In this document: positions 52,203 to 62,409 of the stretch, piece by piece | Layout: the number at the start of each line of letters is the position of its first letter | Position numbering within the stretch: the stretch's first letter is position 1 | NCBI GenBank assembly: GCA_013239625.1 | Contig: MU053196.1 | Location: 248,001 to 312,000, forward strand | Reading direction: 5' to 3' | Origin: Lama guanicoe | Taxonomy: Eukaryota | DNA length: 64,000 nucleotides | Position numbers and translations under genes: made by a program | The notes under the pieces: generated by a model | Told to the model about the DNA's origin: nothing | Databases searched by the model: none | Seen by the model: the letters and a program-made list of their open reading frames with translations, nothing else

Positions 52203-52353
52203 TCATCCCACTGGACTATGACATAAGGGGCAGAAGTTGTAGTTACTGATTTCCTGAGCCAGAACACAGTGCTTGCACACACTGCACATCCAGAATTGAT
52301 ACTCAGTGATTGGGCTTCCTGTGGCAACACATGTTGGCAGTTTCCCTTCCCCT
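52203..52353 (-). CDS. WDR35: WDR35-like last coding exon (151 bp incl. TGA), C-terminal Cys-rich zinc-binding segment
   Basis: ttttacag| [49 protein letters not shown]; CxxC...CPLCH terminus typical of WDR35. Confidence 0.95.
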
Positions 52354-52629
52354 CTGTAAAAATAAGAGGAAAAGCAATTATACTTTAAAACTTCTAATTA
52401 CTTAAAACTTTATTTATTACACTTAAGAAAACTGAAGAATGAAAAACATTTCAAGGTAAATTTCAAATAAGCATTAATATACACTCACAAGAGTAAATAA
52501 AGTAGGGTATACTATTAAGGTAGATTACTTCAAAATTTAGTGCTTCAATTATTGTGTGACACTATTTAGGCATAAAAATCCAAGCTTTTAATAAGGTAGA
52601 CTGACATCTACTAATTACAATTAGCCTAC

Positions 52630-52870
52630 CCTTCAAGAAGGCTGTCCAGTTCAGATTTTCTGTTATCTTTTGGAGTATGTCTGGTGAAGATTTCTAGAGC
52701 AAGATCTTCATACTGCTGTTTCTGTTCTGAACTGAGGGTCTCTAAAGATTCAAGTTTAATAAAAGCTTTTGAACAGGTACCAAAAGCTCTTCTGGCACAT
52801 GCACAGAGGGCCAACAGAGAGTAGATCTCAACGGCAGGGATAATGTCTTCATAGTCTCTCAGGCAAAGAG
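52630..52870 (-). CDS. WDR35: WDR35-like penultimate coding exon (241 bp)
   Basis: tctttcctag| ... GG|gtaggc; [80 protein letters not shown](G). Confidence 0.95.
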
Positions 52871-54143
52871 CTAGGAAAGAGAAGACAATTTAGATTTTTA
52901 AAAGCAATCATGATATCACGAACATGCATGGGAAAGAATCTATGTTAAGCTGTTTCAGTTTAACCTACATGAACTTATGCAAACTTAAAGAAAACAATGG
53001 TGACTGAAGAACCAGTAGGAGGATGAAGGCTACATGATCTCCACATTCTGCAAACCCAGCTAACAACTCAGGGCCTATGAAAATAACCACCACCAAATAA
53101 TGCATGTGGCTGTGCCATTTAGAAATATACACACAGACTGAAAAAAAAAAAGGTGTCAAAACACACATCTTTTGTTCCATATAAGTGTGTCAGATATTTC
53201 TGTGGATTCTCAAAATAATATATCCTGCTTCTTTTTGCTAAAAAAGCAAAGTATGAAATCGTATGTTTTCTCTTTGTGTTTCTTTGAACAGATTATTGCT
53301 TTTCTGTTTGTCTTATTGAAACAAATAGAACTTTGAGAAAAAAGAATGAAAATGAGACTCTAAGTTGTTAGTTCAGACAATTTATTTTGACAGCTACCGT
53401 GTCTTATTTTCAATACTTCTACACTGCAGATATAATCTCTTTCTTTAAAATGCACTGGAGAGTTAATAACACATTAGTAACCAAATTGTATCTTTTTATT
53501 CTCTAGACCTGGCAATCTCAAAAATATCTTGTTAGAGTATAACACTGGAAACTTCATAAAACAATTCAAAGCAACATATTCATGTATTTTACAATAGATT
53601 ACTATACACTGGTGCTGGGGTCAAGTGTTTACAACAAAGCTCATTCGGAAGAAATTTAAAAAAAGGAAATTCACTGAATTACAATAAAGAATACCCTCTA
53701 ATTTCACAGGTTCATAGGCAATAATTTACAGTGTCATATTATTGTAAGTAAAACTGTATACAATTTTATAGGTATGGAGAAATGTCTAAAAGGAGGTTCA
53801 CTCAAATGTTAGCGATGCTTATCCTGGAGTTTTAAGATTATTTTATAAGTTATTAGATTATTTTACTCTTGTCTTTGCATTTTTTCCTATTTTAGTTGAA
53901 ACTGTTATATAAGTATCATTTTTATTTAAAAAGTTAAACGCTATAGATATCTATCTACTAATGTGGAAGTATTTGATAACAGATCATTGTCTTTTAAAAA
54001 GTCCCATAAGTATGGTCTGTTACACTTCCAGCATTGTAAAAAATTTTTTTAAATATATATATACTTATTTTATTTTTATTTATTTATTTTATATAATATA
54101 CATTGACTATTTTATTATATATTAAATATGTAAAGATTTATAT

Positions 54144-54181
54144 TATATATATATATATATATATATATATATATATATATA
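54144..54181. repeat. (TA)n microsatellite
   Basis: About 19 uninterrupted TA units. Confidence 0.95.
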
Positions 54182-54524
54182 CACAAACACACACAAGAAT
54201 GTGGACTGGGCTGTTAAGTGTTTAACTTTGCATAAATAAAATAGAGATAGTTAATGTTTTATAAATGTTCTTTTTCCTTATCTCAAACTTCTGCTTATTC
54301 TATTAACCATGTATATATTGCTTTCCATGTATTAAAAAGTAAAAAGAACTTCAAAAAGAAAATGTACAAAACAAATCACAGATAGCAAATCTTGAACATA
54401 TGAAATAAATCCAGAAAAAAAAGTGTTATTGAAACTAATATAGGGGCAAAGTGAAGGAGCTGGCCCTTCATATTCAATTTATAATTTTTTAGGCATGTTA
54501 CACAGACTAGGTTAACAGGCCCAC

Positions 54525-54681
54525 CTGTCGTCAGTGCACTGTCAACACTGCCCTCGTAGAGCTGCCTCTGTGCCAAGAGGAAGAAGTGGTAAGCCTCAGC
54601 CCCCCTCCATGCAGTATCTGTGAAACGACTAGTTGTGGACAGAGCTTCTTCTTCCAGCAAACCAGCCAAAGCAGAAGTGGC
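54525..54681 (-). CDS. WDR35: WDR35-like coding exon (157 bp)
   Basis: tacttctag| ... G|gtgggc; [52 protein letters not shown]. Confidence 0.95.
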
Positions 54682-55339
54682 CTAGAAGTAAAGCAGACCC
54701 ACATTTTCTGTCAGCACCACCATAACAATGGTCTTCCAATGAAGATGACTTCTGAAATTGTTATACATTAAAATATCTAAATTAGCAGATTTTATCATTA
54801 CAAAACTCATTCCAAACTTAGTTTCTCCATTATAATTCATATTTTGTTAAACAAGTATGATTAAATTGTCTTCAGTTTTATTGAGGTATAATTGATTTTA
54901 AAAATTATAAGATTTTTAAAGTGTACATCATGCTGATTCGACATATGTATACATTGTGAGAAGGTTCTCCCCATGGTATGATCAAATATTAAAATAGAAT
55001 TAATTAGCTTTAAGTTAATGTAAGGTTCAATCACACATTAAAAGAATGTACATATTCTAGAAAAGCTTTTAAAACTCACTGTTAGAAAGGATTTTCCAAG
55101 TAAGGAATTTAAACAAAGATTACAGATTAGTCTTGTAAAAAAATAATTTGCAATATTTGCAAGTTGCAATGTCTAAATTTGAGTACCAATTCCAAATCAG
55201 TCATTAATTTCCCTCATACCATTTAAGAAAATAAATGCAAACAAACAAGTTAAATGTCCTGTCCATAAAGAGAATTTTGGTAGTTCTTTTTTCCTTAAAC
55301 ACTTCAGATGATTTAATGTTACTAAATAATCTACCTTAC

Positions 55340-55480
55340 CTCTGAGTTCTTTTCTTTAGCTTTTCCTTGTTGAGCATTTTTCATTTGTTCATGGTACTGC
55401 TCTATAAGTAAAGCTGATAGTACATAGAGCTTCTTAACACGTAAAGGTTTAGTTCTTTTCTTTGCCTCTTCATCTGCAAT
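55340..55480 (-). CDS. WDR35: WDR35-like coding exon (141 bp)
   Basis: gtttaaag| ... GAG|gtaagg; [47 protein letters not shown]. Confidence 0.95.
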
Positions 55481-60712: not shown

Positions 60713-60765
60713 TACAATTTTAAGTGCTGGGTAAATGGATGAGGGGGTCCACATAGGTTACCTAC

Positions 60766-60912
60766 CACTTTTGTCGATCAGCAAAGTAGTCTCCAATGCC
60801 GTTGTAGGCTTGTTCAAGGAGACTGTCATCTGCATCACCAGATCCAGTTTTCAGGAGTTGGAGTACTCTAAACCAATCTCCCAATTTCACCCGGAGGCCA
60901 ATAGCAAGATCT
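60766..60912 (-). CDS. WDR35: WDR35-like coding exon (147 bp)
   Basis: tttgtag| ... TG|gtaggt; [48 protein letters not shown](W). Confidence 0.95.
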
Positions 60913-60924
60913 CTACAAACAAAT

Positions 60925-61040
60925 GACATTCATTCATTCATTCACTCATTCAACAAATATTTATCAAGTGCCTACTCCATGCTAGGTTCAATTCTAGGGC
61001 CCTGAGAATACACAGCAATGAATGGACAGATGAGGTAACT
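60925..61040 (-). mobile_element. L2 3' end
   Basis: cattcattcattcactcattcaacaaatatttatcaagtgcctact is the characteristic L2 tail. Confidence 0.75.
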
Positions 61041-61745
61041 CTCCAAATACTTTAAAATTTAGCCCCATCAGGTAAGAGGCAATAGGGAGAACCTGGAATA
61101 AGAAAAAGGAAACAATTTCCTGTCTCTTATTTTCCTAGACTTTCAAGCTACTTGGCAAAATAATGATTTAAATAACAATCACTTCTTTCCATCAATTTCT
61201 TAAGACATGATCAGGCTTATTTCATGCTTACATGTTTGGTTTTATACTTCTTGTCAGGGCCCAAGTTGTATTAGCAATTTCTTAAAAGTACAAATAATAA
61301 AAATTAGATATAATGTTCACAGCTGAAATGAAGTTCATAATTATTTTCTACAAATCAAATGAAATATGAAGAGTAACACTCAATCCCCTAATATCTTTGA
61401 TTTTTATTTCATGCTCCTTGACAAAAGGCTTAAATCAAAAAAGAGAACATAAACAATCAGCTTAGTAAATAAATGCTAAAGCTTCCAGTTTCTGCAGCCA
61501 TATATGACTTTTTTCTCCTACCAAATGAAAAAACTAACCCATGGCCAGCCCTTACTACATGTATAAAGAGAGAATAAAGCTGCCCTCAAATTACAAAGCA
61601 TAAATTCACGAAGGTCATGCAGAGTATCCAGGTTGTAATCCAAATGAATTTATTTTCTAGAACACATGATTTTACAATTCCCACTTGTGAAATAAAAATC
61701 GCAATTTCCAGAAGTACTCTGGGTGTCAGCACCTTCGTCACTGAC

Positions 61746-61949
61746 CTTCTGTCCATATTGAGGTACATTCTCTCCGCCTCCTCAAACCTGCCGAAGTAGG
61801 CAACCACCTCCGCCTGCTTCATGGACTCGCTCTGTAGGTTGCCCAGGCGCTTCACAAACTTAATGCCTTGGTAATCCTTACAGAGCACGAATGCTTGCTC
61901 TGCAGTGTGCAAATCCAGCTTCTGAAGAGCTGCTTCAGCCAGCAGACGC
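61746..61949 (-). CDS. WDR35: WDR35-like coding exon (204 bp)
   Basis: ctaaag| ... AG|gtcagt; (W)[67 protein letters not shown](R); phases fit both neighbours. Confidence 0.95.
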
Positions 61950-62272
61950 CTTTAGTACAAAAGAACAGGAAAACATATGGCAAGTTACTGATAAAGAAGT
62001 CTCGAATCAGAATTCAATTATTACACCTGTTGTTTCTAGTGAACCATGGTGGGAAGTGGTTATTTTAACACATTTATCCATGTTCATATAATTTTATGCT
62101 TCTGTTGAGTACTTCCAAATCGAAACTGAATTTCTGTATTTTTAAAAGAACAAGAACGGAAGTCTACTCCCATCAGGAGGCTAGGATGAGTGCAGAGGAA
62201 GACAGAGCTGAGACCGTAAGGCTTACACCTGACATTTGGGGAGGTTTTTTTGTTGTTGAATTTTTTAAATAC

Positions 62273-62409
62273 CAAAGTCGGGGGTGTGGATTGTCCTGTA
62301 TGAATTGAGATGCATGTTGAATTCCAACATTTTCAATCAGTGCTCGGCTATCTCGCAGGGACTGAAGCTCAAAGTTAATGATATAATCCTTGTTCGGATG
62401 TTCTGGATT
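62273..62409 (-). CDS. WDR35: WDR35-like internal coding exon (most 5' exon in window, 137 bp)
   Basis: Acceptor tttactttcag, donor TG|gtattt; translates [45 protein letters not shown](W), containing the SLRD and DNPHPRLW motifs of WDR35/IFT121. Not in the supplied ORF track. Confidence 0.93.

Follow-up and report, generated by a model that had tools for sequence, protein, structure and literature searches.

The stretch analyzed in this study is a 64,000-nucleotide window of the Lama guanicoe genome (NCBI GenBank assembly GCA_013239625.1, contig MU053196.1, positions 248,001 to 312,000 of the forward strand), which carries the last ten exons of a WDR35 (IFT121) gene on its minus strand. We found that this genome contains two WDR35 loci and that the gene in the window, hereafter referred to as copy A, is a paralog of WDR35 and not its orthologue. 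The duplication and the asymmetric divergence of copy A and the other gene, copy B, are nearly certain. Copy A is a long-standing, intact second WDR35 gene of camelids that evolves fast, and it most likely still encodes a protein, with its constraint altered. It is an additional member of a known family, not a novel kind of system. Loss of WDR35 function results in skeletal ciliopathies in humans. To our knowledge, the subunits of intraflagellar transport complex A (IFT-A), to which the protein belongs, are normally single-copy in vertebrates.

A stop-to-stop scan revealed WDR35-like peptides on the minus strand at 52.2-62.4 kb of the window. Gene models of both copies were constructed from ungapped tblastn matches with splice-aware refinement of the junctions, and the copy A exons were re-read straight from the window. 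The model of copy A spans 62409-52203 (minus strand) and consists of 10 exons and 528 codons followed by TGA, with no internal stops; the acceptors were AG at 10 of 10 sites and the donors were GT at 9 of 9. These are exons 19-28 of the 28-exon WDR35/IFT121 gene. The start, the end, and the counts of ten exons and 528 codons given in an earlier sequence-only reading of this stretch were reproduced by the model. The exon at 61745-61951 matched the human WDR35 chains 8fgw_A and 8bbe_E with E = 2e-32. Exon 20 showed 100% identity to the alpaca protein XP_072811114.1 (annotated as "WDR35-like"; hereafter P0001), whereas other mammals showed 93-96%. Over the part encoded in the window, the identity to the human WDR35 record was 89.6% (474/529) for copy A and 92.6% for copy B.

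The loci were searched in the source assembly (2.05 Gb, 55,231 contigs) using P0001 as the query. Two exon series were observed. One of them, copy A, lies across the ends of the scaffolds C332 (328,969 bp; the window is C332:248001-312000) and C7251 (596,787 bp), and the other, copy B, lies on C2832 from 3174983 to about 3222300-3222995 (minus strand). Because C332 and C7251 both end inside the gene, copy A is split by a scaffold gap, into which ten codons of exon 9 and the junction after this exon fall. Both copies have 28 exons of identical lengths and 1181 codons ending with TGA; no internal stop was found, and all the junctions seen were GT-AG. The sequence-only reading had proposed a duplicated copy and a count of the WDR35 loci. 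Indeed, two full loci were present in the genome rather than a single one with substitutions common to the orthologues; the window copy is the diverged one, and the other copy is at the ancestral syntenic position. Single WDR35 exon pieces were also detected on two tiny contigs, C41313:217-363 (residues 101-149, 92% to P0001) and C22189:2-94 (residues 776-806, 97%), and these may be either haplotigs or parts of an additional copy.

The homology between the two loci extends far beyond WDR35. Copies A and B were collinear at 93.5-94.8% from window position 51607 to the end of C332, and C7251:548001-596787 aligned in reverse to the copy B region at 91-95%. Furthermore, the homology reached at least C7251:538338 and C2832:3266000. 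The block is therefore collinear at 91-95% over at least 88 kb, a value that is a lower bound, and it falls within the definition of a segmental duplication (at least 1 kb and at least 90% identity). The part of this MATN3 and WDR35 duplication located in the window (51607..64000, strand not assigned) aligned by blastn at 93.5-95% between A and B and runs off the window end. The 3' edge was sharp: window position 51607, which is 596 bp past the copy A stop, corresponds to C2832:3174380. A local repeat was observed directly at this edge, downstream of copy B, as the 122 bp at the copy A edge (window 51607-51728) matched both C2832:3174094-3174213 and 3174380-3174501, each at 95% and about 286 bp apart.

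Matrilin-3 exons were found upstream of both copies. In contrast, TTC32 exons, which were recognised via fused WDR35-TTC32 gene models, were found only downstream of copy B, and a search of the window with the same gene models gave no TTC32 match. These results place copy B, and not copy A, at the ancestral MATN3-WDR35-TTC32 position. The flank of copy A outside the duplication (window 41000..50968, strand not assigned), which is without TTC32, belongs to an older paralogous block that is 86-91% identical to C1972:10719215-10730585; accordingly, copy A sits in a mosaic of duplications. Since TTC32 exons are only beside copy B and the flank of copy A is paralogous to C1972, copy A is a paralog and not the orthologue. 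In Bactrian camel records, the contig with matrilin-3 measures 71.1 Mb and the one with the A-type WDR35 measures 31.8 Mb, and these separate contigs suggest, without proving, that the duplication was interchromosomal.

When 26 of the 27 introns (38,626 bp) were aligned, copies A and B differed at a proportion of sites p = 0.045 and by 187 small insertions or deletions (indels), and the divergence per intron ranged from 2.2% to 8.1%. Two introns differ greatly in length: intron 12 has 2,568 nt in A against 5,646 nt in B, and intron 21 has 977 nt in A against 554 nt in B. The differences are large insertions or deletions after the duplication. The 4.5% intron divergence with its 187 indels is difficult to explain if the two copies were an assembly artefact, that is, allelic haplotypes or a misassembled single locus. 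Such an artefact might be supposed from the location of copy A at the ends of two small scaffolds with the gene split by a gap, and from the stray exon pieces on tiny contigs. However, the 3' flanks of the copies also differ, with TTC32 only beside B and the A flank matching C1972, and A-type and B-type proteins are annotated separately in other camelid assemblies; we consider an artefact highly improbable. Even less credible is a single true orthologue that merely evolves fast in camelids. The camel records named plain "WDR35" are of the A type, as would be expected in that case, but a conserved second locus at the syntenic position in the same genome refutes it, and a B-type dromedary record exists.

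The divergence between the two copies was strongly asymmetric. The proteins differed at 80 of 1171 comparable residues (93% identity), and the coding sequences differed at 130 bases. When the 80 differences were polarised with nine outgroup mammals, 65 were derived in A, 10 were derived in B, and 5 were ambiguous; in the window part, 25 were derived in A and 8 in B. The protein change in copy A was thus about six times that in copy B, and about 6% of the copy A residues have been replaced. All outgroups were closer to B: over residues 436-1181, the human protein showed 93.7% identity to B and 90.5% to A, and a bovid protein showed 94.5% and 90.1%, respectively. Pairwise analysis by the Nei-Gojobori method gave dN = 0.030, dS = 0.069, and omega (dN/dS) = 0.43, and the window part alone gave dS 0.081, dN 0.028, and omega 0.34. 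By simple arithmetic with dS split equally, the A lineage has an omega of about 0.74 and the B lineage one of about 0.11, and the dN of the A lineage was about 1.09 times the neutral rate, taken as half the intron divergence (K = 0.047). Copy B is under ordinary strong constraint. The rate in the A lineage alone cannot separate relaxed selection from adaptive change.

The A-derived changes in the window are located as follows, all the exons being on the minus strand. Exon 19 (62273..62409, 137 nt, residues 654-699) carries I668L, R669Q, K680N, E684Q, D685H, and E691Q; exon 20 (61746..61949, 204 nt, residues 699-767) carries R721L and D763N; and exon 21 (60766..60912, 147 nt, residues 767-816) carries H803Y and A805G. 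L817V and R827Q are in exon 22 (59656..59788, 133 nt, residues 816-860), and V869A is in exon 23 (57500..57610, 111 nt, residues 861-897). In exon 24 (56451..56615, 165 nt, residues 898-952), G914D, A918E, S922C, and E926G occur with a four-residue spacing. Exon 25 (55340..55480, 141 nt, residues 953-999) carries R990Q, V993A, and G995E, exon 26 (54525..54681, 157 nt, residues 1000-1052) carries N1022T, I1034L, and K1050T, and exon 27 (52630..52870, 241 nt, residues 1052-1132) carries H1054C and K1115R. Exon 28 (52206..52353, with the TGA at 52205-52203; residues 1132-1181) encodes the zinc-finger end, in which the CxxC cysteines are kept and no A-derived change was found. Downstream of the stop, an AATAAA poly(A) signal (52159..52164, minus strand) and an ATTAAA poly(A) signal (51877..51882, minus strand) lie 38 nt and 320 nt past it, respectively; both are within the duplicated segment and have counterparts in copy B.

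Differences from the human protein had been listed in the sequence-only reading. Those in exons 19, 23, and 24, together with R721L, A805G, R827Q, N1022T, K1050T, and H1054C, were borne out by the comparison. At these 17 substitutions, the site is conserved in 9/9 or 8/9 outgroup mammals, with the sole exception of K680N (7/9). A further listed change, S1078R, is real, but it is present in both copies and is not specific to copy A; accordingly, it arose before the duplication.

The protein architecture was examined by Pfam tests on P0001, which was used as a proxy for copy A and is without the alternative exon 11. P0001 passed PF24797 (the N-terminal WDR35/TULP4 beta-propeller; 529 bits, cut-off 80) and PF23390 (the second WDR35 beta-propeller; 511 bits, cut-off 27.1), both of which are encoded outside the window. 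It also passed the tetratricopeptide repeat (TPR) models PF25768, PF25170, and PF23387 (TPR_IFT121, TPR_WDR35) with 158, 101.5, and 64 bits, respectively; this region is encoded within the window. The score for PF23145, the model of the IFT121 zinc finger, was 78 bits (cut-off 25). The C-terminal cysteines within the last 70 residues were identical in A, B, and human. The excerpted text of PMC10066299 describes IFT121 as a member of the peripheral IFT139-IFT121-IFT43 subcomplex of IFT-A, in which its zinc site contacts IFT43; IFT121 also shares large interfaces with both IFT122 and IFT144. This text contains no list of disease residues of IFT121. In copy A, the zinc end is unchanged, which would fit with retained IFT43 binding.

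The A-derived changes were clustered along the protein: 24 pairs were within 4 residues of each other, compared with 14.3 expected (P about 0.01), but this weakened to P = 0.065 once the sites were weighted by conservation. In the TPR half, the same-helix-face spacings numbered 11, compared with 5.6 expected (P about 0.02), as in the series 914/918/922/926 and 680/684/685/691. This pattern is what would be expected if the fold were kept and the surfaces were remodelled, and it is only suggestive.

The promoter of copy A has a CpG island with a GC content of 0.65 and a CpG observed/expected ratio of 0.92. The promoter divergence between A and B was 8.5%, above the 4.5% of the introns. An X-box-like motif was found 112 nt upstream of the ATG of each copy, beyond the window, reading GTTGCCAGGGCGAC in copy B and GTTGCCAGCGCGAC in copy A; altered regulation of copy A was considered from this motif, but a single base change is too little to claim it. 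A 20-bp insertion was observed in copy A just upstream of the motif.

Whether copy A is constrained or decaying was evaluated from its lesions and from the distribution of its changes. At half the intron indel rate, 8.6 indels would be expected in the 3.5-kb coding sequence of copy A, and none was observed (P = 1.9e-4). Under simulated neutral substitution, the frame of copy A stayed open in 3.7% of the trials (P 0.037), and the neutral probability that all 108 splice-site bases are intact was 0.081. No disabling lesion was found in the 28 exons, 27 of which were seen in full. Furthermore, of 1160 sites aligned with 152 non-camelid vertebrate WDR35 proteins, 47.4% show at least 98% conservation, whereas only 17 of the 65 A-derived changes fall there. 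A-derived changes were thus rarer at conserved sites (p = 6.8e-4 by a binomial test and p = 2.3e-4 by a rank test).

The MATN3 copy in the same duplicate offered a control. The MATN3-like exons of the A-side duplicate span C7251:560.6-578.0 kb, and the VWA exon has a frameshifting 13-bp deletion (C7251 ~565,250), with 20 changes in 145 VWA residues. The A-side MATN3 copy is a pseudogene. In contrast, the MATN3 beside copy B is intact and 98% identical to camel MATN3. Taken together, the lack of lesions, the site bias, and the dead MATN3 control disfavour neutral decay of copy A. The sequence-only reading had offered an unprocessed pseudogene as an alternative to a functional duplicate, and this alternative is disfavoured because copy A has no indel, stop, or splice lesion and tends to have changed outside the conserved sites, with the neighbouring MATN3 dead.

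Several points, besides the weakening of the clustering mentioned above, weigh against a copy A that still works as a gene. The omega of the A lineage was not significantly different from 1 (rough chi-square, p about 0.3), so that the substitution rate alone fits neutrality. Nine of the 65 A-derived changes are at invariant vertebrate sites and 32 of the 65 alter charge, which could reflect a lost canonical role. The expected number of indels is based on introns, the indel rate of which may exceed that of exon-like sequence; the ten exon 9 codons of copy A are unseen, and a function lost only recently would not be visible. Two RNA runs, X1 and X2, contained 0.22 and 0.21 of the 31-mers sampled from window 52203-62202, and these values are uninformative on copy A: 26.9% of the 31-mers of this region (43% of the exonic ones) are also in copy B, and hence the shares carry no weight for copy A transcription.

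An unprocessed pseudogene or a functionless redundant copy that drifts neutrally, its frame open by luck, would also fit some of the observations: the omega of the A lineage (about 0.74, or about 1.09 when measured by the intron rate) is not significantly lower than 1, changes occur at invariant sites and in charge, and the neighbouring MATN3 copy has died. However, the joint chance that such a copy shows neither an indel nor a stop and has all its splice sites intact would be about 6e-7 (1.9e-4 x 0.037 x 0.081) in the alpaca-type lineage alone. In addition, full-length A-type models have been kept in three camel species, the changes avoid conserved sites, and the promoter CpG island of copy A is undecayed. 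We therefore regard neutral drift as unlikely and retain the reading of copy A as a second WDR35 gene under altered constraint.

The spread of the two types across camelids was examined using the annotated proteins. P0001 was of the A type at all 79 diagnostic sites and differed from copy A at only 2 of 1160 comparable residues (R545Q and R700H); the two sequences represent the same gene. Two other alpaca "WDR35-like" records, XP_072811133 (P0130) and XP_072811134 (P0126), equal copy A up to about residue 860-878 except for R545Q and then have short alternative ends; they may represent shortened isoforms or an additional, partial copy. The "WDR35 isoform X1" records of Camelus dromedarius, C. 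ferus, and C. bactrianus were A-type, with 59 of 80 diagnostic states in the dromedary, and all three species have full-length A-type models of 1181-1185 residues. A B-type protein was also found in the dromedary: XP_031322483.1 (P0227), a record of 422 residues, is 97.2% identical to B and has the B state at 20 of 26 sites and the A state at the other 6. A search with exon 27 of copy B gave best matches of 96% among the cluster representatives, and these were non-camelid.

Changes were counted by parsimony with 14 outgroups, keeping the 1142 sites at which at least 10 of the 14 agree. Forty-four changes were common to alpaca-type and camel A, 17 were found in copy A of this genome only, and 13 were found in camel A only; copy B of this genome had 10 changes, and 11 were common to all camelid copies. 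In the 415 sites covered by P0227, both B sequences had five derived states in common (L917I, T930I, L931F, V1045A, and S1098N), and nine derived states were exclusive to the two A sequences. In neighbor-joining trees with 300 bootstraps, the camelid clade was supported at 96-97% and the A clade at 100% on a long stem of 0.047; the support for the B pair was only 62%. Residues 803-847 of P0227 carry A-type or camel-A-specific states (H803Y, A805G, R827Q, R831C, and N847S), which are either a result of interlocus gene conversion in camels or part of a chimeric gene model, and the weak support for the B pair fits with this tract.

As camels have proteins of both the A and B types, the duplication is older than the split between camels and llama/alpaca, with both copies kept in both tribes. 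The pseudogene alternative of the sequence-only reading had been a young one; a young copy is contradicted by the 44 A-derived states that camel proteins also have and by the five B-derived states of the dromedary record, which place the duplication before the split. The A-type states at residues 803-847 of P0227, as a hint of exchange between the copies, and the range of intron divergence from 2.2% to 8.1% might also suggest that copy A is without its own function and that recurrent gene conversion, with the constrained copy B as the donor, has preserved its frame. However, the 44 A-derived states survive across the exons in both tribes, indicating that the coding sequence has not been homogenised. 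Moreover, the direction of the sole tract seen is from A into B, and this tract may come from a chimeric gene model. Such maintenance by conversion seems still less probable than neutral drift, and retention of copy A as a gene remains the preferred explanation.

Compared with the canonical vertebrate WDR35/IFT121 (human 8fgw_A and 8bbe_E), copy A likewise has 28 exons, two beta-propellers, a TPR region, and a C-terminal zinc site, with about 90% identity and an unchanged zinc-site region. It differs from the canonical gene in its location off the MATN3-WDR35-TTC32 locus and in its 65 derived residues, 17 of which are at sites with at least 98% conservation. Copy B resembles copy A in exon lengths, splice sites, the duplicated block with the promoter and poly(A) signals, and 93% protein identity, but it is syntenic with TTC32 and an intact MATN3, has 10 derived residues, and shows the low omega of about 0.11. 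P0001, as the same gene, and the Camelus A-type records belong with copy A; they are all automatic models without a published analysis. The dead MATN3 copy shares the duplication event, age, and neighbourhood with copy A, and differs in its 13-bp frameshifting deletion from copy A, which is without a lesion in 28 exons. A lineage-specific annotated WDR35 duplicate is also known in Rhinopithecus roxellana, in which "WDR35-like" (P0163) is on the same contig as its WDR35 partner (P0136). As these two are 96.3% identical, the duplicate of this snub-nosed monkey is probably younger than the camelid one, as far as the identity can tell. WDR35 duplicates are hence not confined to camelids.

In the remainder of the window, 71 open frames of at least 110 residues were listed in positions 1-51700, all of which looked non-coding, and no flank gene was identified there. 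An element of about 586 bp at window 45876-46461 was without a counterpart in the C1972 paralog, and copies that are 96-98% identical to it were observed on more than 20 other contigs. This element is a young high-copy repeat, possibly a solo long terminal repeat or similar.

These findings give the following history. A segmental duplication of at least 88 kb copied MATN3 and the whole 28-exon WDR35, including the CpG-island promoter and the two poly(A) signals, and the WDR35 duplicate landed away from the ancestral MATN3-WDR35-TTC32 locus before the split between camels and llama/alpaca. Subsequently, copy B stayed constrained, whereas copy A replaced about 6% of its residues, many of them at sites that barely vary in vertebrates. 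Copy A has kept all its exons, its splice sites, its frame, the Pfam domains, and the zinc-finger cysteines, while the adjoining MATN3 copy died. The protein of copy A is presumed to have the IFT121 fold, namely two beta-propellers, a TPR solenoid, and a C-terminal zinc site, with remodelled surface patches, and it would most likely replace the canonical IFT121 in an IFT-A-type complex in some tissues or states. Its fate would accordingly be sub- or neofunctionalisation and not decay.

A bolder and more doubtful extension, which we put forward tentatively, is that camelids have two versions of IFT121. In this view, an interchromosomal duplication on the camelid stem would have been closely followed by a burst of adaptive surface remodelling of copy A (the 44 replacements, with the helix-face series 914/918/922/926 and 680/684/685/691 as examples), possibly at an omega above 1 should the stem have been short. 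Under renewed constraint in both tribes, copy A may since have served as a specialised IFT121 that would form a variant type of IFT-A train or coat in some cilia or flagella only.

Among the publications searched by full text, which were judged on titles and abstract openings, no camelid WDR35 duplication was described. The automatic annotation of NCBI already names the gene "WDR35-like" in alpaca and plain "WDR35" in camels. These camel records thus represent the diverged paralog under the plain name, and if they are taken as the orthologue, comparative or positive-selection screens would show a false acceleration of WDR35 in camelids. A full-length IFT121 paralog that has been open in both camelid tribes since before their split, with about 6% of its residues changed, represents a natural experiment. 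Copy A indicates which surfaces of IFT121 tolerate change without loss of the fold, and it raises the question of tissue-specific versions of IFT-A.

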